Part shown: positions 4,363-24,673 of the stretch, in pieces
Layout: each line of letters begins with the position of its first letter
Position numbering within the stretch: position 1 is the stretch's first letter
IMG/VR virus record: IMGVR_UViG_3300030332_000461
Span: 1 to 43,523 of that record
Reading direction: 5' to 3' (one strand)
From: a virus
Lineage: Duplodnaviria; Caudoviricetes
Length of the DNA: 43,523 bases
The notes under the pieces: model-generated
The model's database searches: none
Seen by the model: only the letters and a program-made list of their open reading frames with translations
What the model was told of the DNA's origin: nothing
Position numbers and translations under genes: made by a program

Positions 4363-7300
4363 ATGGTCGCACCCCGTTTGCAACAGAATGTGCTAGTTGA
4401 CCCCATAGAGTCCTCTTGGGAGATTCTCAAGGGGCTCATGCTCAAGAATCTGCGTGTTGAGCCACCCTCGGAGACTGAGAAGGTCCTCATCGAGCAATTA
4501 GCGGATTGCGACACCGAGTCTGCAACTAATATCTTGAAAAGTATCCATGATGAGAAACTCCTCGTCCGTCTACAGGAAATCGTCGATAATTGTGATGCTA
4601 ACTTCAATTTGGTGAGAGATGACCCTAATGCTGTCCGAATAATCGACGCTATGAGTGACGAGGATGGTGAGCCCTCTTTCAATCCCGAGGCTTACAATGC
4701 ATTAGCCCATGCTACCAGTGAGGCTGCTCATAATCACCACCAGCGCACGATGGGTCGAGAGCAACATATGAGTGACAGGGGAATCTTGGAACTGACCCAT
4801 CACAAGGACAGGAAGGTAGCCGCCCTGTGGGAAATGAGATGTCGGGAGTTGGCCATGGAGCATCCGAATCAGTTCGAGCCGGAGAAAGCAAGGGAGGTGG
4901 CTCGTCTAGAGTCTCAGATTGAGAAACTGCATGGTTCGGAGAAGACTAGGAAGTCAGCCCGAGCGATGATGTATGGGAAGGACGAAGGGACTTCAGATGA
5001 GGAGAAAGTTGAGGAACACCTTTGGGAACAGTGCAAACTCAAAATCTTGAAGGAGTATTACCGTGACAGGGCCGCCTACGATGTAATCCGCCACATGCGA
5101 GGGGAGAAGCACCATGAGCCGGACTGCATATATGACCATCTTGGTGAGGAGGGTTGTAGTTGTCCTACAGTGATGGAGACTAAGAGAAAGGCAATTCCAC
5201 TGGACGCAGAGGTAGATGAGGGCTTGCAACAGAGGACGAGGCAGAGCGTGCTCGATTTATCCAACATCCTCTATGAGTACACCCGACTGAAACCTAGGGA
5301 CGAGGGAAATGTGGAGCCTCGAGTGAATAGGATAGAGCACTGGTGGAAGGAGACCCCTTCTGACCAAAGAAAACTCATACTTGGTCAAATGGTCGATATG
5401 GGGCATGGCACCCACCTCCCAATGCTTCCCATAGTCCTCGAAGGGTGGAATGTGGGGTTACAGGAGAGAGAGGACTTCCTGCGTTACATCTCAGATTTCG
5501 AGGGCAGAAAGGCCAAACTAGAGAGAAGGGGTTATGGAAAGGCTCGAGACCCTTCTATCATAGGCAACTGGGGTTCTCGTGATTTATTCGATTTCCTATC
5601 CGCCTCCACAGGAGCAGGTGCGTTTGAGAGCACTTCACTTGACCCAGATGACAGTTTGGAGTCCGACAGTGAGTCAAGAGAGGAGGCTGCTGGACCTGTC
5701 AAGGATGCTCCCAAGGAGGACACCAGCACGGGGGTGGGTCAGACTGCCAGTGGTGAGATTGGCGTTGAGAGTGCCAAAACCACTAGTATCCCCTTCCAGA
5801 CCTTCAAACAGATATGGTTCTCTAGAGATGCAGATGAACGACAAGAAATGGCCAACGAATGGTTGAGTGGTTTGCAGCAAAGGGTAGATGACTCCGCTGG
5901 GGTGAACCCCAAGCACAAACCAGGCGAACCCGAACACCTCACCAAGGGTCAGATGGAGAGGATGTTGGCACACCAGAAAATGGGGGTAGACATCATGTGG
6001 CCCGCTACCAGTAGTGGTAAACTCGAGAACATGGAAGCGGCGAGACAGGGACTGGCTGAGATGAGAGAGGACAGGTCCGATGCTTTCGATAATAAGTCCC
6101 GCGCTGCTGGAGTGACTCCGGAGGTCATGAGATTCGCTATACAGGAACTAGCGTGGCTTAGGGACAGTAAGGACGGGAGAGACTGGGGGGATTTGCGGGA
6201 TGCTCTCTATGACTTCAGTGGTGATGAAAAGACCGAGATAGACGACATTCTAGACAGCAAGAAAGGGAGAATCGCACTCAACATGCTGTTGCGACAGGGT
6301 AAGCGGGAGTTCGAGGAGGCGGGTGTAGAGCCGGAACTCGTCCGATGTGATGTATGTGAGGATTCACCCACTCCTGGGAAGTGGAAGAGGAGGAACCAAA
6401 TAGTCGATTGTCCCAAATGTGGTGACAGTCACACTCCTGGGTACATGCCGCTTTACTCCACCCAAGCAGCCAGTGATGCTCAGAAGAGAGAGGTCGTCCT
6501 AGGCATGGAAGCAGATTTGGCTAGACTGGATGCTGTACACACGAGGCACATCCATGATGCGGCTATGGATGCTAACTTCACCGAGGAGTGTGGGGAGTGT
6601 AAGGGGACGGGGAGGGACCCATTCGACAGGAGAGACTCATGCGGCTCTTGTTCCGAAGGTCAAATCATCAATCTTAAGTCCTTCCTTCGGGACATAATAG
6701 GTAAGAAGGCACTGGGTCTCAAACCAGAGGAGGCACTGCATGCCATAATCTGCAGTGCAGAAAGCACACACAGCGTGTTGAACTACAGGTTGAGGGAGAG
6801 GCAGCAGAAGAGGGATATAGCGAACCTCGAGAAGTTCGGTATCATGCCGGACGGGGTCCAAGTCATGTTGCATCTCAATCGCTTGCATATCAATGGAGGG
6901 ACCTTGAGTAGTGAGAATCTTCTCAACATGAGGAGGCAAGTCATCGAGGAGAACCCCAACGCAGGGTTCCGCAAAATCAAGAGGGGAATAGGAGAGAGGT
7001 TGAAGAAGGCCTTCACCTTCATCGACCAAACCCATAACGACCAAGGTGAGCATAGGGGGCTCTATCTCAGGCATGCGATGCACTCCCCGTTCATCGCTGA
7101 CCTGTTGGACATACTGGCAGACAATCCCGATATGTCTAGGGCCTCCGGAGTCATCGAACAGAGGCTCTCGAACCACCTCCGAAAGGTGAATCACCCCAAC
7201 AGGTTTGAGACTCGACCTGAAATGAAGGTATGTCCAGTATGCCATGGTTCAAAGAAGAAAAAGGACTATCAAACTGGTCAGTTCCTAGACCAATCCTGTG

Positions 7301-10300
7301 ATGCCTGCTGGGATAAGAGGAAGGGGGGGTCCACAGGAATCAGCAGGTATGAGCAGGGTGTTGAGGTCCCCAGTCCCCTACATAGCCCCTTACTGAGGAA
7401 TCATACCCCCTCCTGTCCCTGTTGCCAAGACGGGATGAGCAAGATGATTACCCATGCTGGGGGGCTAGGTAGGAAGACGGTTTTACATCATGACCCCCAT
7501 GACATAGACCTCCAAACCGAGGCCGTCTTGGATAGGCTGTTCGAGTTGACAGAGACACTGAGGCGCAGGACTCAGCAGTACACAGAGAAGAAGGAACCTG
7601 ATGAGTTCCTCGAAGGCGAGATGAGGAAGAAGCATCAAGAGATTGAGGATTTGGTGTTGAGGGAGAGTCAAGAGTTGAACAAGGCTCTCGGTACCAGTTA
7701 CAGGGAGGTTTTGGAGAATAAGTCCGGCAGGGACATGGCTCCGTTCGAGTTGGGGTCCTCGGCTCTGACCGAGGAGTCCGAACCGTCGAATACCCCATGC
7801 CCCTTCTGTGCTGAACGGGCCAAAGTAGGGGAACCACCCCTACCGGACTCGGACTCCTTGGGTGTTCCCAACCTCGGAGATGAGGACGGGTATCATGGTG
7901 CGGGCTTCCTCGGCACTCCCCAAGGATGCCCCAATGACCCACACATCGAGGATGGACAGAGGATATTCGAGCAGTTGGATGAGATTCGTTATGCATCACC
8001 CGATATGAGGCGTGTTATCGAGGCTAGTTGGAACAGAGGTCCCCTCATCTCGGACTTGGAGAGTCTCCACCCTAAGATTCGGAAGAGGGGAGGGCCTGAT
8101 GAGGCAGAGTCCTATTCACCCATCCACCCCCAGACCGTGGGTGATTTGGGTTTCGGGAGATGGGCTGCTCTAAGGAGGAGAGGTGGGAAACCCACTCCTG
8201 ACGAGAGGTTCGAGCACAAGTTCCAGTCGAGATACATCGCCACAGAGATGCAGAACTCGAATCCCACAGAGACCCATCTCACAGACACCGCTAGGGAGAA
8301 TTACTCCCACGGTGAGCGCTTCCTAGACCGTATAGAGCATGAGGGGATTCTCGAGGAAGATGATGAGAAACTGAAAGAGTTGTATGCCATACACACACTC
8401 ATACCGGATTATCTCGGTCATCTGCATTACAATCCCTTGCAACTGACTGGTGATGGCGATACTGACCAGCAGAGATGGGCTAGGCGAGTGCTGGGTCTGA
8501 AGAAGGGAGAAACAGTTGGAGAGGAGATGAGGAACAAGTTCAAGCATAACCTACATCTGATTGAACCCCTCTTGGTCCTAGAGAAGGAGTGGGCACGGAA
8601 TTACCTAGCCCCTCGGGAGGAGATGCTGGAGAAGGAGTGGCCGTCCTCGATATTCAACACCGATGAGTCGAAGCAGCCCTTCCTCAAAGAGGATGACCTG
8701 CACAGGGTGTTCGGGGAGTTGAGAGGCCATTACCGAGATTGCCAAGAGTATCTGATGCATGGTTTCCTCTCTGCTGACCACCACGGCTTAATGCCTAGTG
8801 CCAATCACTTCCCAGACCTATTGCTCTTCATGAATAACCCCGATTGCCCTCCAGAGTTGGCTCAGGCTTGGATGGACCATCACCCAGGTCTGAGTACCCC
8901 TGGCAATGACTGGTACGAGAATTATGGGGGGATGTGGGCCACTGAGGGGAGGACCATGAAGGAGATGCAGCCGATAGCCGATGCGATTTGGTCTGCTGCA
9001 CTCGGTGGACGAGGAGAAGAGTACCCGGAATCATACGAAGACTGGATGGAGGAACAGGGTGAATGGTGGGAAGCCAGGACCAATATATCGACCAAGAGGT
9101 TGTGGGACCGAATCAAGAATATGCTCGAGAGGCGTTCCAGTGACCCGGAGGGCTCGAAGAGGGCACTTCTTGCAGTGCGACCCATAAGGGACAGGACCGC
9201 TATGAACCAGTGGGGCTATCCCACTGGCTGCCCGAACTGTTCGGGGGAGGGCCATGTGGATGCTAGGAAGTTCGTGGAGAGTGCCCCTGCTTTCATCGAC
9301 ATGTACGACGAGAGCGGGGAGGTAGTAGGAGAGGCGTTGGACAGAGAGAGACAGCCCTTACCCAAGGAAGGGGGTACACACCTTCTGACAGACCCCGCTG
9401 CCGTGGAGTTCATGAGAGACCATTCGAGACCATTCCGTCATGCCTCTTGGGAGGAACATCCCGAACACGACATAGACAACCCCAGTTACATAGTTAGTGG
9501 GAAATATCGGATACAGTGCCCAGGCTGCAAAGGCACCCATGTCTGCCCGAGTTGCGACGGTCATACAGGATACCATGCCAGCGAGAGTGGGAAGGAGGCG
9601 ATTCACAGAGTTAGGACATTCCTCGGTGGTGTGAAGAGGGAGTTGTGGGGTAACAAGATGAGTTTCCCACCCAACGAGCAGGACCCTCCGGAACTGATAA
9701 CCGACCCCGATGCGGCCCTAATCAACCAAATGCCTGATGATATCGTGGGGGATTATGTTCTTCCGAGTGACCCCGACGAGACAGGGAGGGCTCCTCCAGG
9801 CTTGATTCCCTCCCCTGGATGGCTATGGCACGAGGAGAAGGATGCTGACGGGAATCCCACAGGGAACATCTTCACCATGAGAGACCCATGGTACTCCAAT
9901 TCCGGTGGGATGGGTACTGGGAGTTCCTTCAACAGGCAGTTACAGCAGATGACATCGGAGGAGTTTTGGGGTGGTGAGGGGGTACCTACTGGTTCCGACG
10001 CGGAGGATAGGAGGAAGGAAGCGGAAGCGAGGAGAGCGGAGGAACTGAAAGAGAGTGCTCGGACCATGGCTGCACCCGACGCTCCGCCTATCCAATGGGA
10101 GGGTGGGAAAAAACCCACCCCTCCTGATGAGTGTCAGTTCCCAGGTTGCACACAACAAATCCCAGTAGGTAGCAGGTTCTGCAGGGAGAAAGCCATGAGA
10201 GAGCATTTCACCACTGGGGCGGGTGGTCTCAAGAGCATGGAACTGGTTCCCTCGGGCTTGGCTGCTCCCAACCACTTGGATTTGATGAACAGCCCCCGTA

Positions 10301-12594
10301 TGAAGGCCGCGATGGGAGAGGGCCTCCCCAGCAAGAACTACTATGGTGGACATGAGGGCATCCAGAGAATGCTGGAGTTGGGTTTCAAGTATGAGGGGAG
10401 CAAGGCATTCGGAGTCAAGAACCACATGCCGCCGGAGAAGTACAGGGCATGGGTCGCAAAGGAGTACGATAAGGTGATGAGTAGAATGCTCCATTTCAGG
10501 GATTCAGATAGGCGTCGGCTGAAGAAACAACTGGAGCATGGTGTCTTGACAGAAGACGAGTATAAGCAGCAATCAACTGATATGGAGGAGGCGTGGTTCG
10601 AGGAGACCAAGGAAGCAGTGGCGGAATGGCATAACTCCCTCGAGAAGTTGGATATGCACATCCCCTATTTCACTCATCCCACTAGCGGGGGTGTAGTCTA
10701 TTCCCCCTTCGACATCTTCGACTCCGGAGCCATTCCGGACGATATGTCCATACTGAACTACATCGAACACGGGTTCGACCCCAATAACCCACAACATAAA
10801 TCATTCATCCAAGGACCAGATGGCAGTCTTGGTTTGATGGGAGTGAGAAGTACCTCCTTCTGCCCCGCTTGTCATGCACAGATGGGTAAGGAGAGTATGG
10901 CTGCGGGTGAGTGCCCTAACTGTGGTCTCAAAGGAGAGAGTGATGTTTGGACAAAGGACCACATCCATCCTGGGAACAAGACCAATGCCGGCCAATTGGG
11001 TTGGTTGGGACCAGCACTAGATGCTAGAGAGGACCTAATCAAGAGGCTCAAGTACATAGCGAATCACATGGATGTCGGTGCGGGTGAGATGGACCCAGCC
11101 TTGGTCAAGTGTGACCGCTGCGGGCAGACTGGTGAGCGAAGGGACAAAGACAACAACCTAGTCCCATGCGGTCACTGCATCGGAATCCCTGGGGCTGGCA
11201 GAGTGACCTTCGGGAACTGGGACAATGCACTCGTCACATACCACAGTCCGGATTATGAGTTGCATGTGGGGACCCCTGGTGGTGATTTCAGGCCGATTAA
11301 GAAGTCCGAAGCGGGTGAAGCACTGAGAGCGTTGAGACTGGGGGCCGGAGGCTCGAGGTTGAATGAGAGACTGTTAGCCGCAGATGCCTTGGAGAGCATC
11401 TACGATGTTACTGAGGCCCCCCTCGAACACATGGATGAAGAGGTGAATGAGAGCGCTGCTGACTGGGCTCAGGCCTATCTGACTGCTGTCACAGACCGGA
11501 ACATGTCAATCCCCACTCTACACAAAGGCTTCCTCAGTAATAATGGTTGGAAACACCGGGTCAAAGTCGGTGAGAAAGAGAGGAGCGTTAAGTTCTCAGG
11601 TGCGAAGAGTGTGGCAAAACAAGTCGCTAGTCTGAACCAACAGTGGGCTAGACAGAGTGGGAGCATGAACCTAAGCGAACTACTGAGGGTCACTGGGGCC
11701 TCTAGCATAGACGACTTGGGGAGTGCTTTGGGGCCCACGACAGAGGTAATGAGGGAGAAGAAGCAGGAGAACTGGAAGGATTCAAGGCTTCTCAAGAGCA
11801 AGTTGAACAAGGCTAACCATGCTATCAAGAGACTCGAAGCCAAATCCAAACTCAACAAGTTCGATGAGACCGCATTGGCCGATGCCCGACTGTTGAAGGC
11901 ATTCTGTAGTTGGACCGATTTCGGGTCTCCCATCGCTAGGATAAACAGAGAGTCTGCTGGTGACAAGGTCTACAGACTGGTCGGTAGGATGAATATAGAT
12001 ACCAACAAGACCATCCGTCATGGTGCGGTATTGTCTAAGGGAGGTGTGACGAGTTCAGAAATGGCTCAAGGGATACTAGATGGGAACTTCAACACCGATA
12101 GCAAGCCGTTCTACCTACCGGATGGTTCAGTGTTCGGTACCGCTGGTAGTGTGTACGCAGGCGCACTCGATAACTTGGATAAACGCATCGAGGGCTCTTT
12201 CCATGTAGGGGAGGATGACTTCGACAGGGACCCCGAGACCGGAGAGGTGAGAGTTGATGAGTTCGGGGAGCCCAAGTTGGTCTCATCCAAGGATAGTGCT
12301 GTGATGAGGGATTCCATCTTCACTCCCGCGGCAATGCATGATGAGGCTGTTAGGGCCCACAGGGAGGGCAGGCACGAACACGCCCAGCAGTACCTTACCC
12401 ACATAGGGAATGCCTTACAGGGTACTGGTCTGAAGGCACCCACAGTCGATGATATCCAATCTAGTAGTTTTGAGTCACCTGGGGGAGTAGAAGGTGATGA
12501 TGATTCAGATTACAACGCTTATCTTCCTAAAGCAGAGGGCTCGCCCGTAGAGGTCGCTTGGGATAATATTCTCAAGAATCTCAAACCATTGTGA
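4363..12594 (+). CDS. Giant 2743-aa protein with many CxxC / DnaJ-type CxxCxGxG zinc-finger motifs and tags at both termini
   Basis: 8.2-kb open frame; CGECKGTG, CPVCHGS, CPNCSGEG, CPGCKGT, CPSCDG, CDRCGQTG and others; PIESSWEILK near the N-terminus, PVEVAWDNILK at the C-terminus. Confidence 0.85.
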   Translation: MVAPRLQQNVLVDPIESSWEILKGLMLKNLRVEPPSETEKVLIEQLADCDTESATNILKSIHDEKLLVRLQEIVDNCDANFNLVRDDPNAVRIIDAMSDEDGEPSFNPEAYNALAHATSEAAHNHHQRTMGREQHMSDRGILELTHHKDRKVAALWEMRCRELAMEHPNQFEPEKAREVARLESQIEKLHGSEKTRKSARAMMYGKDEGTSDEEKVEEHLWEQCKLKILKEYYRDRAAYDVIRHMRGEKHHEPDCIYDHLGEEGCSCPTVMETKRKAIPLDAEVDEGLQQRTRQSVLDLSNILYEYTRLKPRDEGNVEPRVNRIEHWWKETPSDQRKLILGQMVDMGHGTHLPMLPIVLEGWNVGLQEREDFLRYISDFEGRKAKLERRGYGKARDPSIIGNWGSRDLFDFLSASTGAGAFESTSLDPDDSLESDSESREEAAGPVKDAPKEDTSTGVGQTASGEIGVESAKTTSIPFQTFKQIWFSRDADERQEMANEWLSGLQQRVDDSAGVNPKHKPGEPEHLTKGQMERMLAHQKMGVDIMWPATSSGKLENMEAARQGLAEMREDRSDAFDNKSRAAGVTPEVMRFAIQELAWLRDSKDGRDWGDLRDALYDFSGDEKTEIDDILDSKKGRIALNMLLRQGKREFEEAGVEPELVRCDVCEDSPTPGKWKRRNQIVDCPKCGDSHTPGYMPLYSTQAASDAQKREVVLGMEADLARLDAVHTRHIHDAAMDANFTEECGECKGTGRDPFDRRDSCGSCSEGQIINLKSFLRDIIGKKALGLKPEEALHAIICSAESTHSVLNYRLRERQQKRDIANLEKFGIMPDGVQVMLHLNRLHINGGTLSSENLLNMRRQVIEENPNAGFRKIKRGIGERLKKAFTFIDQTHNDQGEHRGLYLRHAMHSPFIADLLDILADNPDMSRASGVIEQRLSNHLRKVNHPNRFETRPEMKVCPVCHGSKKKKDYQTGQFLDQSCDACWDKRKGGSTGISRYEQGVEVPSPLHSPLLRNHTPSCPCCQDGMSKMITHAGGLGRKTVLHHDPHDIDLQTEAVLDRLFELTETLRRRTQQYTEKKEPDEFLEGEMRKKHQEIEDLVLRESQELNKALGTSYREVLENKSGRDMAPFELGSSALTEESEPSNTPCPFCAERAKVGEPPLPDSDSLGVPNLGDEDGYHGAGFLGTPQGCPNDPHIEDGQRIFEQLDEIRYASPDMRRVIEASWNRGPLISDLESLHPKIRKRGGPDEAESYSPIHPQTVGDLGFGRWAALRRRGGKPTPDERFEHKFQSRYIATEMQNSNPTETHLTDTARENYSHGERFLDRIEHEGILEEDDEKLKELYAIHTLIPDYLGHLHYNPLQLTGDGDTDQQRWARRVLGLKKGETVGEEMRNKFKHNLHLIEPLLVLEKEWARNYLAPREEMLEKEWPSSIFNTDESKQPFLKEDDLHRVFGELRGHYRDCQEYLMHGFLSADHHGLMPSANHFPDLLLFMNNPDCPPELAQAWMDHHPGLSTPGNDWYENYGGMWATEGRTMKEMQPIADAIWSAALGGRGEEYPESYEDWMEEQGEWWEARTNISTKRLWDRIKNMLERRSSDPEGSKRALLAVRPIRDRTAMNQWGYPTGCPNCSGEGHVDARKFVESAPAFIDMYDESGEVVGEALDRERQPLPKEGGTHLLTDPAAVEFMRDHSRPFRHASWEEHPEHDIDNPSYIVSGKYRIQCPGCKGTHVCPSCDGHTGYHASESGKEAIHRVRTFLGGVKRELWGNKMSFPPNEQDPPELITDPDAALINQMPDDIVGDYVLPSDPDETGRAPPGLIPSPGWLWHEEKDADGNPTGNIFTMRDPWYSNSGGMGTGSSFNRQLQQMTSEEFWGGEGVPTGSDAEDRRKEAEARRAEELKESARTMAAPDAPPIQWEGGKKPTPPDECQFPGCTQQIPVGSRFCREKAMREHFTTGAGGLKSMELVPSGLAAPNHLDLMNSPRMKAAMGEGLPSKNYYGGHEGIQRMLELGFKYEGSKAFGVKNHMPPEKYRAWVAKEYDKVMSRMLHFRDSDRRRLKKQLEHGVLTEDEYKQQSTDMEEAWFEETKEAVAEWHNSLEKLDMHIPYFTHPTSGGVVYSPFDIFDSGAIPDDMSILNYIEHGFDPNNPQHKSFIQGPDGSLGLMGVRSTSFCPACHAQMGKESMAAGECPNCGLKGESDVWTKDHIHPGNKTNAGQLGWLGPALDAREDLIKRLKYIANHMDVGAGEMDPALVKCDRCGQTGERRDKDNNLVPCGHCIGIPGAGRVTFGNWDNALVTYHSPDYELHVGTPGGDFRPIKKSEAGEALRALRLGAGGSRLNERLLAADALESIYDVTEAPLEHMDEEVNESAADWAQAYLTAVTDRNMSIPTLHKGFLSNNGWKHRVKVGEKERSVKFSGAKSVAKQVASLNQQWARQSGSMNLSELLRVTGASSIDDLGSALGPTTEVMREKKQENWKDSRLLKSKLNKANHAIKRLEAKSKLNKFDETALADARLLKAFCSWTDFGSPIARINRESAGDKVYRLVGRMNIDTNKTIRHGAVLSKGGVTSSEMAQGILDGNFNTDSKPFYLPDGSVFGTAGSVYAGALDNLDKRIEGSFHVGEDDFDRDPETGEVRVDEFGEPKLVSSKDSAVMRDSIFTPAAMHDEAVRAHREGRHEHAQQYLTHIGNALQGTGLKAPTVDDIQSSSFESPGGVEGDDDSDYNAYLPKAEGSPVEVAWDNILKNLKPL

Positions 12595-12671
12595 TAAAAA
12601 CGAGAACATGGTCAGTCTCCCAACAGGAGATTATATGTGGTAGTGTTCCCTCGCACGGGTGAGGAAGATAC

Positions 12672-13232
12672 ATGGCATCGTCAAATCTACCACCGCTACA
12701 ACCTAGTGAGACAACCGCTGATGAACTGAGGGTATTGGGGTTAATCACCTTCGTTTCCCTACTTGTGGGGTCAACCATCGCTGTGTTTGATTCTGGTCTC
12801 TGGCTCAAAGCCGGTGATACCCAGACTAACGCTTACACATACGCGATGGCTGCTTTCACCCTACAAGGAATGTCCTTCGTCCTGTACAAGTTACTGATGC
12901 AGGACTCGATGGACCATAAAGCGGGCTTCGCACGCATGGACAGAGAGAGGAGTCGCAGAATGCAGCAAATGCAACAGGAAATGGCTAATCGCCAGATGGA
13001 ACTGGAGATGAGAATGCAAGAAGCGCAGTTCGTTCGACAGATGCAGATGATGGAACACCAGCAAGAATTGGAGTCCACTGGGGCTGATATCACTCAACTG
13101 GGTGATATGCTGGTAATCCCTCAACCTCCTGGCCCTCCCCAGCATGGCGCAGAGGAGAAAGGTTCTATTGACTTGGGCCCGTCCGACAACCAGCCACGAA
13201 GTGCTGGTGGGCAGTTCGCCAAGAAGGTGTAG
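12672..13232 (+). CDS. Membrane protein (two predicted TM helices) with Gln/Met-rich coiled coil
   Basis: GGGTGAGG SD; hydrophobic VLGLITFVSLLVGSTIAVF and YAMAAFTLQGMSFVLY; RMQQMQQEMANRQMELEMRMQ coil. Confidence 0.8.
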   Translation: MASSNLPPLQPSETTADELRVLGLITFVSLLVGSTIAVFDSGLWLKAGDTQTNAYTYAMAAFTLQGMSFVLYKLLMQDSMDHKAGFARMDRERSRRMQQMQQEMANRQMELEMRMQEAQFVRQMQMMEHQQELESTGADITQLGDMLVIPQPPGPPQHGAEEKGSIDLGPSDNQPRSAGGQFAKKV

Positions 13233-13236
13233 TTGA

Positions 13237-13482
13237 ATGGGATGGCTTTTCAAGACTCCCAGTGATGATGCCACTGAAGCGACTCTCAAAGCCCTTCATT
13301 GGCAGAACACACTCGATAATTACTACGAGTACAGTTGGGGATGGTTCAGAACTGTCCTTTTCACTATAGGGGCAGTATTCATCACTTCGGCTGTAGAGAG
13401 CAATGCTAGTATCAGTATATGGGAGAATACAGTAGATTCCTTCATCACATGGGCTCAGGAGACAGTCGGCGGTTGGGTGTAA
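13237..13482 (+). CDS. Small membrane protein
   Basis: 81 aa; hydrophobic WGWFRTVLFTIGAVFITSAV; tightly packed in the cluster. Confidence 0.7.
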   Translation: MGWLFKTPSDDATEATLKALHWQNTLDNYYEYSWGWFRTVLFTIGAVFITSAVESNASISIWENTVDSFITWAQETVGGWV

Positions 13483-13488
13483 GCGTGC

Positions 13489-14205
13489 ATGGCGATTGGC
13501 GGTTCCGTCTTGATGGCAGCGGTAGTATTCGGAAACGACCTCTACAACTACATGAAACCGCGCAGGTTGGGGATATACGGCCCAACCATGGTAGGGAAGA
13601 CCACCTTGGACATGTTCATGACGACACCAGGAGAGATGGCCGATGTCGAGGACAGGACCACTCATTCAGAGAGGCTACTAGGGTCAGGGCATGTTCTACC
13701 TCAACCCACTCGCAAGAGGATACGATACAAGGGGGAGAAGAGAGTAATACACTCATCAGACCTAGGAGGACAACAACGATTCTGGAATCTTTGGATAGAC
13801 GACATGGTGGAGAGGCAGGTCGAAATGGTCATCTTCATGATAGACGACAGGGCTCAGAATGGGAACGGCTCAGATACCATCGACGCAGTGGGAGGGCTGG
13901 AGTATCTCGTAGACGCCTTAATCGACAGGAGATGGAAGTATCGAAGTCTCAGGAGTCGATGGAAAGGACAGAAATACGCCCCCAAACAAATATGGGTTGT
14001 AGCAAACAAGGCAGACCTATGGTGGGACCAGAAGGCCAATATCTTGTGGCAATCTCAACGGCTGAGGGAACATCCTATATTCAACCCCTACCGACCAGCA
14101 ATGGTGAAACTCCAGAAGGCAGGCATCCCCTGTCGAGTGAGCATGATGGCCACCAAGATAGGCTGGAATGTGGAACAGACTCTGGTAGATATGCTAACAT
14201 GGTGA
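13489..14205 (+). CDS. Ras-superfamily (Arf/Rab-like) small GTPase with hydrophobic N-terminus
   Basis: G1 GPTMVGKTT (13579-13605), G2 candidate Thr in DRTT, G3 DLGGQ (13759-13773), G4 NKAD (14005-14016), G5-like MATKIGWNVEQ. Confidence 0.88.
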   Translation: MAIGGSVLMAAVVFGNDLYNYMKPRRLGIYGPTMVGKTTLDMFMTTPGEMADVEDRTTHSERLLGSGHVLPQPTRKRIRYKGEKRVIHSSDLGGQQRFWNLWIDDMVERQVEMVIFMIDDRAQNGNGSDTIDAVGGLEYLVDALIDRRWKYRSLRSRWKGQKYAPKQIWVVANKADLWWDQKANILWQSQRLREHPIFNPYRPAMVKLQKAGIPCRVSMMATKIGWNVEQTLVDMLTW

Positions 14206-14209
14206 CAAT

Positions 14210-15226
14210 ATGGTGATGAACCCGTTCGGACAACCCTCAGAACTACCCCCATTGGGGTCTTACAACAGCCAGCAGATGCTACAGATAGCCGGTAACTCAC
14301 AGGTGCCGTTAGCGCAATTGAGAGAGATGGCCCAGGCTCAGACCTATATGCAGGAAGCAGCAATGCAGACTCATATCGAGATACCCAAGGTCAATTTCTA
14401 CCCATCGAACCATGGTAACCTCAAGAAGGCTCGAAGGTCTGATATCCGCCAAGCCTACAGACTCCTCACCCCCACCAAGCGGAGATTGTGGTCTCCACGC
14501 AGATGGTGGTTCGGTGGAAAGTACCAGTATTCCGGGGACGCCACCCACTGCTGCATCGACGGCTGTGATGTGGATAATCTGATGAGGGCTGCTGGTAATG
14601 TCTATGATATGATTAAGGATGAGGAGACTGGGAAGTCTCTTTGGGACCTATATTTCACAGACCCCGTGAGTGGGGAGTCAAGAGGCTTCCAGGCTCGTGA
14701 GGGTGTGACCAGTGGTAGAATAGTTAGAGGGACATACTGTCCTGAGCACCTTCATCTCTATCACCTGCTCTTGAAGTGGGAGACTGCGGAACAGGATGAG
14801 GAGGATGGGACTACAAGCACCCTCAAGTCCAGGCTGAACAAAGGTGTTTCCATGGTCACTGTCCCAGTGGCTGGTATGGCTGGTGGGGTGATAGGGAAGG
14901 ACAATACCCCCCTTCCATTGCAGAGGTACCAGCCATTCTTCAATATGATGAAGGAGGACAATATCCCTGTAGTGAGATTGCAGAATGTGGACGGTAACAA
15001 TGACCTAACTGTAGTTGTCTTCGATATGAGACAGTTCGAGACAGGGGTCAATTCTAGACTCATCAATGAGGCCATTCTCAATAGTGGTTCTAGTTCTGGG
15101 GCACCCACTATGGGTCTCGGAGAACTGTTAGCACAGACAGCACCTCAGACGGAAACTTCAACTGTGCCACCTCCTACGCAAGAGATGATGGACACTGCTG
15201 AGGCTATGCAAGGGGTGGTCGAATGA
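14210..15226 (+). CDS. Hypothetical protein in the GTPase cluster, possibly metal-binding
   Basis: 338 aa; HCCIDGC and YCPEHLH motifs; starts 4 nt after the GTPase stop. Confidence 0.75.
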   Translation: MVMNPFGQPSELPPLGSYNSQQMLQIAGNSQVPLAQLREMAQAQTYMQEAAMQTHIEIPKVNFYPSNHGNLKKARRSDIRQAYRLLTPTKRRLWSPRRWWFGGKYQYSGDATHCCIDGCDVDNLMRAAGNVYDMIKDEETGKSLWDLYFTDPVSGESRGFQAREGVTSGRIVRGTYCPEHLHLYHLLLKWETAEQDEEDGTTSTLKSRLNKGVSMVTVPVAGMAGGVIGKDNTPLPLQRYQPFFNMMKEDNIPVVRLQNVDGNNDLTVVVFDMRQFETGVNSRLINEAILNSGSSSGAPTMGLGELLAQTAPQTETSTVPPPTQEMMDTAEAMQGVVE

Positions 15227-15855
15227 GTTGGTGGCAATCCAGTCAATCAGCGACTCCTGCTCCACTAGGATTACCTGGTGGTCAACAAACAATGTCCGCT
15301 TATGGGGCGACTGACCCTTATGCTAATCCGTATGGTGCAATGGGCGCAGGGATGATGGGGGGGATGGGATACCAATATCAACAGGCACCACCTTTGGCCC
15401 CTCCGAGCGATTTGGAAGTGATGGCTGCTCTTATACAGACTAGCGTGCCCGTGGACAGATGGTTCGCTGGCCCTAATCTAGATGTGTTAGTTGCTTTGAT
15501 GTACAAAATCAGTGCTCTTGCCACTGTGGAGACTCTGAAGAATGCTACTCTTGTAGAGACTGACGATGGTAAGTTGAAGTTCGAGTTCGTGGACGCAACA
15601 CTCCTCCCCACTGTTGACAGTGTGACGATGGAGAACAACACCCTCGCTACAGCGGCTCAGACCTCCATAACTGCGGCTCACCAGCAACAGCAGGCTATAC
15701 TCAATATGGTTCAGCAGAACCTGATGAGTGATGCACTTGGTGCTGCCATGGCTAACCCTGGCTTTATGCAGAATGTTGGTAGTACCATCGGCAATGTCTT
15801 CAGAGGTGCTGTAGGATTACCACAACCAGTTTCAACACTCCCCCCAACGATGTGA
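15223..15855 (+). CDS. Hypothetical Gln/Met/Gly-rich protein
   Basis: ATGA overlap with upstream gene; GGGGTGG SD; 210 aa. Confidence 0.75.
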   Translation: MSWWQSSQSATPAPLGLPGGQQTMSAYGATDPYANPYGAMGAGMMGGMGYQYQQAPPLAPPSDLEVMAALIQTSVPVDRWFAGPNLDVLVALMYKISALATVETLKNATLVETDDGKLKFEFVDATLLPTVDSVTMENNTLATAAQTSITAAHQQQQAILNMVQQNLMSDALGAAMANPGFMQNVGSTIGNVFRGAVGLPQPVSTLPPTM

Positions 15856-15859
15856 TTAG

Positions 15860-16126
15860 ATGAAAGGCACTAGTATGAACCCCTTACAGTTCATCCCCAT
15901 TGACAGTGTCGTGTATGGCATACATGACATGACTAATGTGAAGAAGTCTTCACTGATTGACATGATAATGGTGCAGGTCATCAGTATCACCCTAGGTGCA
16001 TTCCTGATGATAGCCTTCAATGCCAATGACATGAGGCAGACTGAACTCACATATTCGATGGCTATTCTGTTCACCAGTCTATTGCTGACCGGAGCCGTCT
16101 ACCGCAGACTCTCCGACAGAGGCTGA
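15860..16126 (+). CDS. Small two-TM membrane protein (holin-like size and topology)
   Basis: 88 aa; MIMVQVISITLGAFLMIAF and YSMAILFTSLLLTGAVY, followed by a basic RR tail. Confidence 0.7.
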   Translation: MKGTSMNPLQFIPIDSVVYGIHDMTNVKKSSLIDMIMVQVISITLGAFLMIAFNANDMRQTELTYSMAILFTSLLLTGAVYRRLSDRG

Positions 16127-16396
16127 CCACTTCCCTATTGGGCACTCGCTATTCGTGAGTTTAGTCTTGTAATTGAGAAAGCATCTACAGAGGTTACAAC
16201 GCGTCCCGGTTTTGTGTTCACAAGAGTCACAAATCAGTAGCCTCTCCCTCTGTTCTTTGTCAGTCACATGATTAGCCCTGATGATATCACCAGCGGCCAT
16301 CCTCAAATCTGAAATTGTGGAGGCCAGGGTGGCTTTCTCCGACACGGTTGCAGCCGTGTGTGTCGCTACTGTAGGTGCCCGCCCTAGACCTCGCAC
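16079..16396 (-). CDS. Small Cys-rich protein (DUF6171-like pattern)
   Basis: RLLICDSC...RCNLCRCFLNYKTKL...CPIGKW follows a widespread phage R-L-x-x-C-x-x-C...C-x-x-C-x-C...CP-x-x-KW pattern; only credible minus-strand gene; start uncertain. Confidence 0.65.
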   Translation of the reverse strand: MRGLGRAPTVATHTAATVSEKATLASTISDLRMAAGDIIRANHVTDKEQRERLLICDSCEHKTGTRCNLCRCFLNYKTKLTNSECPIGKWSASVGESAVDGSGQQ

Positions 16397-16449: not shown

Positions 16450-17139
16450 ATGGGCGAACGCGTTACTCGGTCTTCTTGCCGTCTCTGTCAAGATGATGAC
16501 AGGGATTTATTGGAGGAAGGGCTGCTCCAAGGGGGCATAATCCCGAAGCAGTTAGACAAGGACAAGAACTGGCGTGAGGGTACCTCAGACCGCCATTTCA
16601 GAAACCACATGGGAGAGTTTCACATGGGGTCTAACAGTGATTGTGTGATATGCACGCACCCTGAGAGGTTCGAGTTCGAGAACGCCTATTTCCTAGGTGG
16701 TATGAGCAGTGACGCCATCGCCGAGGCCATCGGGTGTAGTGAGTCCACAGTGTATCACCACATCCGACACCATCTCAAACCACTGGTTCAGAAGACTGCG
16801 GCTCCTCTTGTGGCGATACGGACGGGAGAGGAAATGGGCAGTCTTAGGTCCAATGTCGAGAGACTGAATGGGGAATTGGGGGTCTTCTTGGATGATGCTG
16901 ACCGAAATGACCCCTCTTATGTGAAGAACATAACCGCCTTGCACAGAGAAGTTAGGGAGACTCTAGGTCTGATGCTCAAATTACAGGAGAAGACTATAGG
17001 AGATGTACAGCAGACCATACAGGCTGATACTGTGAACATACTCAAGGTAGAACTCGCTAAGGAGTCACCAGAGGTTTGGAAGAGGATTCGCAACAAATTA
17101 CTCCAAGAGGACGAGGTGGTGGAGATAGATGAGAGGTGA
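16450..17139 (+). CDS. Zinc-finger/HTH protein, putative terminase small subunit
   Basis: Two CxxC...HxxxH units (CRLC..HFRNH; CVICTHPER..SSDAIAEAIGCSESTVYHHIRHH, HTH-like), then a coiled coil; upstream of the large terminase. Confidence 0.5.
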   Translation: MGERVTRSSCRLCQDDDRDLLEEGLLQGGIIPKQLDKDKNWREGTSDRHFRNHMGEFHMGSNSDCVICTHPERFEFENAYFLGGMSSDAIAEAIGCSESTVYHHIRHHLKPLVQKTAAPLVAIRTGEEMGSLRSNVERLNGELGVFLDDADRNDPSYVKNITALHREVRETLGLMLKLQEKTIGDVQQTIQADTVNILKVELAKESPEVWKRIRNKLLQEDEVVEIDER

Positions 17140-21888: not shown

Positions 21889-23297
21889 TTTGCTTGGTTG
21901 ATACTGAAACTAAGGATGTCATTGAGGATATCGACTGGGAGATGTCCAAGAGGGACTTCAAGTTCTTCTTCGAGGAGATACTGGGCTGGCAGTTGGCTGA
22001 CCACCATGCCAAGTGGTTCCATAACCTCAACACTCACAACAGGTACTGTGTGAAAGCAGCCCGTGACCATGGAAAATCTACTCTCTTCATAGGGTACATA
22101 CTTTGGAAGGCGGTATTCTGCGTTAGGACAGACATCATGATATTCAGCCACAGTCTAGACCAGTCGATTCGCCACATGAGAAATCTCAATGACTTGATAG
22201 ACAGTAGTCCCATGCTGGCTAAGATGAAGGACAAGGACGCTTGGTCCAAGACCTTCTTCGGATTCACCAACGGCTCTCGAATCACCGCCAAGTCAGTGGG
22301 TGGTGGTGTTCGTGGTGCTCACCCTGATATCGTTCTCCTAGACGACATCCTGTGGGGGACTACAGAGACCGAATTGCAGAGAGTAGCCTCTTGGTTCTAT
22401 GAGGTCATGGTACCAACGGTCCACCACACCGCCCAGTTGTGCATAGTCGGCACACCATTCACCCCTACTGACCTGTACACAGAACTAGAGCAGAGGGATG
22501 GTTACTTGGTTGAGACATATCCAGCAATCAACGAGGCTGGTGAGCCTCTTTGGCCATGGCGTTGGTCGTTAGAGGCTCTCGATGCTCGAAGGATGGACAT
22601 GCCAGCCATAGCCTTCACCCGTGAATATCTCTGTGAGCCCATGGACGATATGTCCAGCCTGTTCCCCTCTACCATTGTCAGTGCTTGTAAGGACCCCTAT
22701 CTCACTCTTCTAGATAGAAGGGAGAAGGATTCCGATGACCAATATTTCATCGGTTGGGACCCAGCCATCTCATCTGACCGTGGGGCTGACTTCACCGTGA
22801 TGCTGGTCTTACGAAGGCCCTCTGATAACCCCGAGTTGTTGGAATTGGTCCATGTAGTGAGAAGGAAGGGTATGGATTTCCGCACTCAGATTTTTGAGAT
22901 TCAACGACTCAACAACCGATTCCAGCCTGATGTGATTGAACTCGAGGCCAACCATTTCCAGCGTGTGTTCGCCACAGAACTGAGGGCTGACACCGACCTT
23001 CCTATCAAGACATTCATCAGTACCAAGCAGAGGAGGGAGAGCCTTCTTATGGGATTGGTCCTACGCTTCGAGCGCGAGCAGATGCGTCTGCCATGGGGAG
23101 ATGAGAGGTCTCGTGACCTCATCAGCCAATTGGAGCACGAACTCATCATGTTTGGTATGACGAAACAGGGTAAGTTGGAGACTATTGCTCGCCACGATGA
23201 CTTTGCTATAGCCCTCGCTTTGGCTGTTTGGGCCACCACCGAGTTCCGTGAGAGAATTGTAGATTTGGATGACTTGATGCAGGGGCTGATAGATTGA
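21864..23297 (+). CDS. terL: Terminase large subunit
   Basis: Walker A AARDHGKST, Walker B IVLLDD, motif IVGTP, RNase H-like nuclease IGWDPA ... HDDFAIALALA; true start probably TTG 21894 after the GGGGTGA SD. Confidence 0.95.
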   Translation: MGRIETGVICLVDTETKDVIEDIDWEMSKRDFKFFFEEILGWQLADHHAKWFHNLNTHNRYCVKAARDHGKSTLFIGYILWKAVFCVRTDIMIFSHSLDQSIRHMRNLNDLIDSSPMLAKMKDKDAWSKTFFGFTNGSRITAKSVGGGVRGAHPDIVLLDDILWGTTETELQRVASWFYEVMVPTVHHTAQLCIVGTPFTPTDLYTELEQRDGYLVETYPAINEAGEPLWPWRWSLEALDARRMDMPAIAFTREYLCEPMDDMSSLFPSTIVSACKDPYLTLLDRREKDSDDQYFIGWDPAISSDRGADFTVMLVLRRPSDNPELLELVHVVRRKGMDFRTQIFEIQRLNNRFQPDVIELEANHFQRVFATELRADTDLPIKTFISTKQRRESLLMGLVLRFEREQMRLPWGDERSRDLISQLEHELIMFGMTKQGKLETIARHDDFAIALALAVWATTEFRERIVDLDDLMQGLID

Positions 23298-24673
23298 CTT
23301 GGGGTAGCATGCTCATCGGTGACGATTACGACGCCAAGACCAATGAACCTGATTCTGACAGGGCTTGGGTCATCAAGCAGTTGATGCAACACCCTCTGTT
23401 CAAGAACGAGCAGTTGGTTGCACCACAGTTCGAGGGTGACGCTCCCCCCACCCCCGAGGTCGAGAGCGAGTCGCCCCAGTTCACCGATGGGGAGGTTGTG
23501 GATGGCTGGTTCGAGGACCAGTTCGGGAAGACTGCTTCTGAACTAATCAAGGACCTCCGTATGAAAAGGAGGGTCCATAAGGAGTTCACAGGCGATATCG
23601 ACGAGTTGATTGAGGTAGTTAGGAAAGCGAAACAGGCTGAGATAGAATCTGTTCTGTTGGGAGTACCTTGGGCCTCGGAATACATCGAGCCTATCCGGGG
23701 GCTGGGTCTGACAGATAGAGACTTGAAAGCACTGAGAAAGTTCGGGGAAGTTAGAGAGATATCTCTCAAGCAGGCTTGCATCCAGTGGGATAACAGTAAC
23801 ACAGTCATCAAGCGACTGGGTGAAGTGGAAGGGAACTGGGATGACGAGCAACGAGCCCTTTGGGTGGAGGCCATCAACAAGAGGAGTGAGGCTAGGAGCA
23901 TGTGGAGAGGTTCTCTGCACCAAGCGGACAGTCTGAATAAATCCGAGGCGGCGTATCTCAATGTCGCCTCAGACATTCTCTCTAACAGAGGGCCTATGGA
24001 TACTAGGGCTCTGTTGGAGAACATGTCCCACTTGGACGGTAGGAACAAGTCATTCTCTGTACAGAAACTGAGCGCGTTACTCAAGGTATACGGGCCCGAG
24101 TACAACATAGCGAAGCATCTCGAGAAATGGGAATTACTCTCTAGTGACTCTATCATCAAGGACCCTTGGGCCTATGCTGCTGGGTTCCTAGATGCTGATG
24201 GTTACATCACCATCTCCAAGCGAGGGGAGCCTAGAGCAGGAATCATAGCGACTGGGGAGAGGGGTAGAGTGCATTGTGAGCAGATGCATAAGATGCTTGG
24301 TTGTGGTATTCTGCAATTGGATTTGAAAGTTCACGAGAGTAGTAAGAAAAGCCAGCACAGGCTACAATTCTACAGCGCTGATGATTTGAGAAAACTCTTG
24401 AGGGGTACTCAAGACCATCTCAGATTGAAGAAGAAGCAAGCCGTGTGTATCTTGGAACTTCTCGATTTACGGGGCCGTGATGGTGATATGATTACCAAGC
24501 GGAGAGATGAGTTGTTCAAGATAGTTAAATGGGAGAACTGGCACGATGTGAAGGGTGATGAACTGCTTGAAGAGTGGAATGTTGATGAACAGGAGGTCCT
24601 CTCATGGGGTAGGAGCGACCCCGAGGTCATCAGGCTTGTTGACGACATGAGTGGTTTAGTAGGTGATATCTGA
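23294..24673 (+). CDS. Protein with C-terminal LAGLIDADG endonuclease-like domain
   Basis: YAAGFLDADG at 24173-24202, then typical beta strands and HLRLKKKQA; ~290-aa unassigned N-terminal region. Confidence 0.85.
   Translation: MTWGSMLIGDDYDAKTNEPDSDRAWVIKQLMQHPLFKNEQLVAPQFEGDAPPTPEVESESPQFTDGEVVDGWFEDQFGKTASELIKDLRMKRRVHKEFTGDIDELIEVVRKAKQAEIESVLLGVPWASEYIEPIRGLGLTDRDLKALRKFGEVREISLKQACIQWDNSNTVIKRLGEVEGNWDDEQRALWVEAINKRSEARSMWRGSLHQADSLNKSEAAYLNVASDILSNRGPMDTRALLENMSHLDGRNKSFSVQKLSALLKVYGPEYNIAKHLEKWELLSSDSIIKDPWAYAAGFLDADGYITISKRGEPRAGIIATGERGRVHCEQMHKMLGCGILQLDLKVHESSKKSQHRLQFYSADDLRKLLRGTQDHLRLKKKQAVCILELLDLRGRDGDMITKRRDELFKIVKWENWHDVKGDELLEEWNVDEQEVLSWGRSDPEVIRLVDDMSGLVGDI

Follow-up and report, generated by a model that had tools for sequence, protein, structure and literature searches.

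A conserved gene block around an Arf-like GTPase in tailed viruses: a probable membrane module and a possible route of exit from the host

What does a tailed virus do with a small guanosine triphosphatase (GTPase) set among genes for membrane proteins? The question is raised by six genes at positions 12,672 to 16,126 of IMG/VR record IMGVR_UViG_3300030332_000461, a 43.5-kilobase (kb) tailed virus record that is ~41% complete; the whole stretch of 43,523 nucleotides (nt) was analysed and is called the window here. A sequence-only reading had proposed a GTPase-timed machine for lysis, budding or a membrane compartment in a host without peptidoglycan. Our analysis indicates that the six genes very probably form a GTPase-controlled membrane module. 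The function we favor for this module is lytic exit from the host, to which we assign a probability of roughly 40%. The genes, named g1 to g6, and the element ahead of them are as follows.

12615–12645, + strand: TATA-like element ahead of g1, within a 77-nt gap; putative archaeal promoter and likely operon start
12672–13232, + strand: g1, membrane protein of 186 amino acids with a strong and a weaker hydrophobic helix, followed by a long helix rich in Gln, Met, Arg and Glu and by a variable tail
13237–13482, + strand: g2, small predicted single-pass membrane protein of 81 amino acids with a Trp-rich C-terminal helix
13489–14205, + strand: g3, Arf-like small GTPase of 238 amino acids, by motifs and fold; N-terminal helix 3–22, P-loop 31–39, switch I Arg56-Thr57, DxGG 91–94, invariant Trp102, NKxD 173–176, G5 220–222
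14210–15226, + strand: g4, soluble orphan of 338 amino acids with a predicted Cys3-His zinc site (C114, C119, C177, H180)
15223–15855, + strand: g5, orphan of 210 amino acids with a low-complexity N-terminus, a helical core and a Gly/Ala-rich amphipathic C-terminal helix
15860–16126, + strand: g6, two-helix membrane protein of 88 amino acids ending in a short basic tail; an accessory found only in clades I and II

The six + strand open reading frames (ORFs) are indeed packed as the sequence-only reading described, with successive gaps of 4, 6, 4, −4 and 4 nt, and none carries the AW-x-x-LK tag. Neither property marks a module, because both are ordinary in the window: gaps of 6 nt or less also occur at 21 of 30 other positions, and 21 of 30 other ORFs (terminase, portal and capsid among them) lack the tag as well. 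Synonymous codon differences outnumber amino-acid-changing ones in all six genes relative to the close relative L002 (65 versus 18 for the GTPase). A TATA-like hexamer precedes g1 in 34 of the 39 loci taken as representatives, and g3, g4, g5, g6 or g8 (a downstream gene) in 0–14 of 39, a contrast that is inflated because the pattern was picked after inspecting these same sequences. RNA run X1 contributed a few short contigs on g1–g3 and on relatives' capsid genes, which have no bearing on expression.

Comparison with relatives supports the treatment of these genes as a unit. The order g3-g4-g5-g6 is kept in 80/80 close viral loci, with g2 in 79 and g1 in 78, the misses falling at contig ends. 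A P-loop pattern taken from the GTPase alignment yielded 120 viral loci, 80 of them with flanks, and 78 of these 80 encode the same GTPase family (13 in clade I, 11 in clade II, 53 in clade III, 1 in clade IV). The clade profiles drew on part of the surveyed set, namely 25 clade III and 8 clade II loci. In clade II, all six genes occur in order at a GTPase identity of 32–41%; hhalign probabilities (P) between clades I and II are 95, 60, 100, 100, 99 and 97 for g1 to g6, and off-diagonal pairs stay below 3. The g1 alignment spans 122 columns, and that of g2 reaches an E-value of 9e-5. Clade III has a capsid of the same family at 36% identity, and homology with clade I is detected for the GTPase (P 99.9), g4 (P 96) and g5 (P 94). 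There, g4 and g5 follow the GTPase in 40/40 loci, and two hydrophobic genes precede it in 52/52.

The surroundings of the block differ between these clades. In clades I and II, it lies upstream of the terminase–portal genes, with g8 downstream in 24/24 loci and a capsid gene upstream in 0/17. In clade III, it lies between the capsid gene and a PHROG 17057 gene, following the former directly and at short gaps in all 46 loci with enough flank, and g8 is downstream in 0/32. Since the flanks changed while the genes stayed together, we conclude that the block moved as a unit; in both positions it sits among morphogenesis genes. Loss of co-occurrence in relatives would have spoken against the sequence-only reading, and the opposite was found. 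Among records selected by their capsid gene, 12 of the 32 searched carry the GTPase. The 20 without it reach at most ~22.7 kb upstream of the capsid, against a spacing of ~21–23 kb in the positives, and three are borderline. A fourth, long-branch version of the cassette (L287, 1172–6227) lies directly downstream of a chaperonin gene, and its g5 ends in CxxCxGxGCxxC.

At the center of the block, g3 is what it had been taken for: its motifs are intact, and its model has a Ras-superfamily fold. All five G motifs are kept, with the G1 GxxxxGK[ST], G3 DxxG and G4 NKxD residues, Trp102 and Asp105 invariant in 52/52 sequences and a canonical SAK at G5 in 19/19 clade III sequences; the GTPase thus looks intact. 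The model has a mean predicted local distance difference test score (pLDDT) of 70.8, low near switch I, and includes the predicted helix 3–22. Foldseek matched it with probability 1.0 to Ras-family chains, Rab proteins ranking at the top, while full structural alignment gave LokiRagO (Z 12.7), Gs-alpha (12.2), SR-beta (12.1), Arf6 (12.0) and Sar1 (11.7), which are tied within 1. Overall, matches had Z 11–12.7 and root-mean-square deviations of 3.1–5.3 over 153–179 aligned residues. By sequence, the best GTPase for the family profile is the Asgard protein GerdArfR1 (PDB 8OUN, so identified in the available part of bioRxiv 10.1101/2024.02.28.582541) at E 2.2e-5, followed by Arl8 and Rab33B, tied near 1e-3. 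Searches with the single g3 sequence found nothing in Pfam or PHROGs (E 0.01), PDB sequences or annotated phages. Among 1.84 billion representatives, 156 sequences reach E 0.001, and 7 of 8 distant matches scanned score best as Pfam Arf.

How closely does g3 resemble a true Arf? We used the traits listed in PMC2063696: an N-terminal helix, the wDvGGqxxxRxxW signature, a short retractable interswitch, Asp26 and a myristate acceptor at Gly2. The G-domain fold and the predicted helix before the P-loop are shared with GerdArfR1 (8OUN/8OUM), Arl8, Arf6, Sar1 and SR-beta, as is DxGG followed by a Trp eleven residues later. The N-terminus carries a hydrophobic stretch in every one of the four clades, with a hydrophobic first half and an amphipathic second; by analogy with SR-beta, it could serve as a fixed anchor. 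Within the signature, the final Trp is found in 52/52 sequences and the leading Trp is missing; GG occurs in 20/23 clade I, 3/8 parsed clade II and 19/19 clade III sequences, and the Arg (or Lys) is confined to clade II (7 of 8 parsed rows, with 2 rows unparsed). The interswitch is long, 34 residues from Thr57 to Asp91, with 32–34 in clades I and II and 24 in one clade III row, these lengths excluding 18 clade III and 2 clade I rows in which the pattern had picked an earlier 'RT'. In Arf1, it measures ~19 residues. The Asp26 position holds Thr, Ser, Pro or Ala in 52/52 sequences, and residue 2 is Gly in only 1/52 as called. Insertions flank G4 on both sides, and the gene is encoded by a tailed virus together with membrane partners of its own, also unlike Arf. 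Of 50 parsed rows, 24 have Glu at the catalytic position, 18 have Gln, 7 have Asp and 1 has His; this frequent loss of the Gln, mostly to Glu or Asp, suggests that GTP hydrolysis depends on a partner. As for myristoylation, its signal is likewise missing from the two Asgard ArfR proteins that have been studied, according to the part of bioRxiv 10.1101/2024.02.28.582541 available to us. Overall, g3 is nearest to the Arf/Sar/SRβ/Rag branch: it is Arf-like, but not an Arf.

The nearest outgroups found are Arf-like GTPases (P0294, P0304, P0340, P0379, P0329, P0350 and P0358) that bear hydrophobic or amphipathic N-terminal helices. A search for the genomic surroundings of three distant GTPases (P0272, P0304 and P0294) found none. 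RecA matches in the GTPase search were discarded because they trace to repeated P-loops in a fused construct, and plasmid matches were judged to be noise.

Membrane calls were made from Kyte-Doolittle hydropathy only, at a threshold of 1.6 over the 36 + strand ORFs of the window, and only g1 and g6 pass it. For g1, described earlier as having two transmembrane segments and a coiled coil, one strong segment holds up in 35/35 relatives. The second is weak, exceeding 1.2 in 19/35, but clear in clade II (10/10), and the supposed coiled coil is a Gln/Met/Arg/Glu-rich stretch of weak heptad character (hydrophobic share at a/d positions ≤0.47). The single transmembrane segment claimed for g2 scores 1.49 in the window, below the threshold, and lies above it in 20/28 relatives. 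Two hydrophobic segments are found for g6 in 25/29 relatives. In g3 and g4 no segment exceeds 1.6, and in g5 one does in just 5/29. Thus, the claim that the six are the only clearly membrane-type genes of the window survives in part: g1, g2 and g6 look like the integral membrane candidates, but g3, g4 and g5 show no clear transmembrane segment.

Although g5 had been singled out as Gln/Met-rich, its content of these residues (15%) is exceeded by that of g1 (19%). Its Gly/Ala-rich C-terminal helix recurs in all three clades compared, with a hydrophobic moment of 0.50 at residues 179–196 and a GxxxG motif in 29/29, 8/8 and 16/19 sequences, counts that are not controlled for Gly content. We predict that g5 is a peripheral membrane binder.

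The Cys/His motif noted earlier in g4 is conserved: C114, G118, G169, C177 and H180 are invariant in 52/52 sequences, and another Cys lies at either +3 or +5. This pattern likely forms a Cys3-His zinc site, whose halves lie ~62 residues apart in clades I and II, with no Arg after the last ligand. The g4 model has a pLDDT of 69 with a confident core. Its best structural matches are helical bundles only (Z 5.1 at most), and no known GTPase-activating protein (GAP) or guanine-nucleotide exchange factor (GEF) clearly shares its fold. A search of annotated phages found nothing, and the ESM Atlas gave only leads below 0.9. In six clade I loci (L062, 6712–7767; L064, L066, L069, L071 and L072), a gap of 0.2–1 kb, perhaps holding an extra gene, separates the GTPase from g4.

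The identity of the virus bears on what such a block could do. Pfam and PHROGs place terminase, portal, prohead protease and capsid genes in the window. The best cultured matches of its capsid protein are those of haloviruses HCTV-1 and HVTV-1, at 33% identity, and the same 33% is given for the capsids of magroviruses, which infect marine group II archaea, in the accessible part of PMC5434244. As in Magrovirales, capsid, portal, protease and terminase are all related to those of haloviruses. Its proteins mark the window as part of a magrovirus-type genome. From the virus type (the capsid pattern) alone, an archaeon of marine group II is the likely host, which agrees with the earlier proposal of a host without peptidoglycan.

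How might the block serve release from such a cell? Transcribed late with the morphogenesis genes, it would provide g1, g2 and, where present, g6 as a membrane platform. Binding of GTP would expose or reorient the N-terminal helix of g3 and so dock the GTPase on the membrane. A role for g4 as regulator or effector of g3 is plausible because hydrolysis probably needs a partner, and the amphipathic Gly-rich helix of g5 could bend or rupture the bilayer. The whole would be a late, GTP-switched machine that breaches the host membrane for virus release. We favor lytic exit because the block lies among late genes in both of its positions and is deeply conserved, and because it holds the clear membrane proteins of the window, where no other lysis gene is visible. 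The absence of a visible endolysin is confirmed, with no endolysin or holin match in Pfam or PHROGs for 37 ORFs of a record only ~41% complete. According to the portion of PMC10791045 available to us, lysis of the host is frequent among tailed viruses of Euryarchaeota, whose holins are still unidentified. The block shares features with tailed-phage holin cassettes and with the putative holins of Adrikavirales (the only order for which holins are proposed in the accessible part of PMC11706807), namely membrane proteins of one or two helices encoded by late genes and, in g6, a short basic tail. It differs from them in being centered on a GTPase. Like holins, g6, g1 and g2 are small predicted membrane proteins with a charged tail, which is a weak sign of that function.

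A number of observations weigh against lytic exit. To our knowledge, no phage lysis system needs a GTPase. No holin family match was found for g6, g1 or g2 (Pfam or PHROGs, E 0.01), and no endolysin gene adjoins them; since holins are diverse, a missing family match does not exclude holin function. The window covers less than half of the genome. Downstream of the block, g8 and g10 are equally syntenic (80/80), so synteny in close relatives is weak evidence by itself. The two membrane genes of clade III match g1 and g2 by position and hydropathy only (g1 P 0.5–19), and a clade III genome that is 97% complete has g4 and g5 ~1.7 kb downstream of the GTPase, behind small inserted genes unrelated to the block. 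The most holin-like gene, g6, is found in 0/36 clade III loci. A search of whole records counted none in 18 clade III records (one 97% complete) and one clade IV record, though it found g6 in both clade II controls; one weak match inside a 2177-residue frame was not counted. Either g6 is dispensable in clade III or it is too divergent there. The earlier picture of g6 as a holin-sized protein with two transmembrane segments stands, but a role as the key holin is not supported, and the conserved core comprises five genes. A typical ArfGAP binds zinc through four Cys arranged in close pairs and has an Arg finger behind them, and g4, with its Cys3-His ligands, wide spacing and no Arg, fits neither this pattern nor that of ArvC. 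The suggestion that the neighbors act as GAP, GEF or effector is thus unsupported. Finally, HCTV-1 and vir519 show no match to the clade I GTPase profile, so the HCTV-1 lineage apparently exits its cells without this GTPase.

The same evidence can be read in terms of virion assembly. Heads could be assembled, or DNA packaged, while tethered by the cassette to the inside of the membrane, or the cassette could set up a membrane-bound virus factory; the GTPase would then set finished intermediates free. Its constant place among morphogenesis genes agrees with this, and the prohead of T4 offers a precedent, being assembled while anchored to the membrane. Position cannot separate exit from assembly, because lysis genes also sit in late operons. 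HCTV-1, however, has a capsid of the same family and no GTPase match, and we regard an assembly anchor as unlikely.

A vesicle machine is suggested by the archaeal ArvABC (OapABC) system. ArvA, according to the available part of PMC10927574, is a GTPase of archaea that bears an amphipathic helix at its N-terminus and drives vesicle formation; a viral counterpart might shed vesicles for non-lytic release, as decoys or for cargo export. Both operons join a GTPase bearing an N-terminal helix to a downstream zinc-binding partner, and the strand-1/P-loop motif is nearly identical. The same P-loop pattern, applied to metagenomes, retrieved many ArvA genes, identified by downstream OapB and OapC in the loci scanned. 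The match between ArvA and the viral GTPase (hhalign P 94–96), however, covers only 24–79 columns of this strand-1/P-loop region. A quick, unrooted tree places nine ArvA rows on a branch of their own (support 100, length 2.05) that excludes the viral rows. ArvA has DTPG where the viral family has DxGG and the Trp, and the viral cassette adds integral membrane proteins. ArvB (PF09846) was not found in the window, although controls were detected, nor did any of the six genes match Pfam; ArvB and ArvC (PF09845) gave hhalign P below 5 against the viral partner profiles tried. With a separate branch and no ArvB or ArvC homologue, identity of g3 with ArvA is ruled out; to judge from the sequences compared, the cassette is analogous to ArvABC and not a copy. 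A tailed virion with a ~100-kb genome would also be unlikely cargo for budding, and we consider the vesicle machine rather improbable.

Host takeover or superinfection exclusion, by envelope remodelling, receptor blocking or interference with division or host GTPases, is a common task of small orphan membrane proteins in phages, and in clade I the cassette apparently has its own promoter. Such genes are usually patchy and fast-changing, whereas this block has been kept across capsid lineages only 36% identical and trails the capsid gene at short gaps in clade III, which makes takeover an improbable explanation. We find it quite improbable that g4 and g5 are packaged ejection (pilot) proteins for DNA entry, with the other products as loading factors. 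The Gln/Met content and Gly/Ala-rich C-terminus of g5 are frequent in pilot proteins, and the genes adjoin head genes in clade III, but strongly hydrophobic proteins such as g1, g2 and g6 would be out of place in a lipid-free tailed virion, and the block lacks the AW-x-x-LK tag seen on many neighbors, a tag whose own meaning is undefined. That the six are merely unrelated neighbors in a generally conserved region, as the synteny of g8 and g10 in close relatives and the ordinary gaps would allow, is barely credible and already largely refuted by three homologous genes and two positional matches that stayed together after the locus moved.

Returning to lytic exit, its most specific form would have magroviruses leave wall-less archaea by a GTPase-timed machine made of an Arf-like switch, a zinc regulator of new fold, membrane proteins and an amphipathic effector. 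We offer this combination tentatively and consider it doubtful as a whole. If true, it would represent a lysis principle unrelated to ESCRT, holin–endolysin systems or virus-associated pyramids, and head-tail viruses would have evolved a trafficking switch of the eukaryotic style. The exit of tailed viruses from archaea that lack murein is an open problem, and the cassette supplies a short, testable gene list. Independently of function, it extends the Arf-like GTPases by a new branch that belongs to neither eukaryotes nor Asgard archaea, and it contributes a zinc protein without a clear fold match.

Our literature search, which did not cover subscription papers, found no paper on this combination of a GTPase with membrane proteins. 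The string 'GTP' is not in the main text of PMC11706807, PMC5434244, PMC10160649 or PMC10768690, nor in the supplements of the first three, S13/S14 of PMC11706807 aside; the gene may be annotated as 'GTPase' in those two files or in subscription papers. The accessible part of the 2024 egress review (PMC10791045) calls archaeal viral holins elusive and goes no further than speculating that viruses may use ArvA. The cassette is a real, conserved and apparently undescribed viral GTPase–membrane block with a five-gene core. Other mobile elements carry Ras-superfamily GTPases as well, such as the mimivirus Rab (PDB 5XC5), which belongs to a different host and element. A mobile-like region of Atabeyarchaeia (Asgard) encodes GTPases that cluster with Arf, again in another host and element, and the part of PMC11529989 available to us describes no conserved membrane cassette there.

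The full six-gene block also occurs on 8–16 kb contigs in GTDB bins assigned to Maricaulis, Promethearchaeati and Parvibaculum (L081, L082 and L083). These are likely misbinned viral contigs, and they could mislead surveys of Asgard small GTPases.

One neighbor converges on the end of the cassette and is not counted as part of it.

16079–16396, − strand: DUF6171-like Cys-rich gene

This gene (Pfam E 1.9e-5; PHROG 13558 E 1e-13) overlaps the end of g6 and is found in 71/80 loci; several clade II loci have another small Cys-rich gene, on the + strand, in its place. Beyond it, g8 (16450–17139) encodes Cys/His motifs, a helix-turn-helix and a long helix, and is found in all clade I and II motif loci. 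It is a candidate small terminase or late regulator, the former unproven because g8 has no detectable similarity to gp103 of HCTV-1. Next to one clade II cassette lies a gene (L264, 5564–6388) that we take, from its motif, to be an HMG-CoA lyase, an enzyme listed for Aoguangviridae.

Elsewhere in the window, two giant orphan ORFs (4363–12594 and 28348–35331; 2743 and 2327 amino acids) have no Pfam or PHROG match, and the larger contains many CxxC pairs. A 459-amino-acid gene in the terminase–portal interval (23294–24673) has an endonuclease-like C-terminal domain (PHROG 5046, E 5e-9). The tag mentioned above, more fully [AS]W-x-x-(x)-[LI]K, lies close to the N-terminus or the C-terminus in many variable proteins; tagged ORFs in the window start at 213, 433, 1990, 4161, 4363, 20644, 24673 and 42164, and the tag recurs at many other loci (for example L246, 6644–7744, and L258, 129–1516). 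Small tagged genes are inserted in many places, even within the L258 cassette, where the form is W-x-x-I-[LI]-K. The tag is possibly a capsid-targeting or protease signal.

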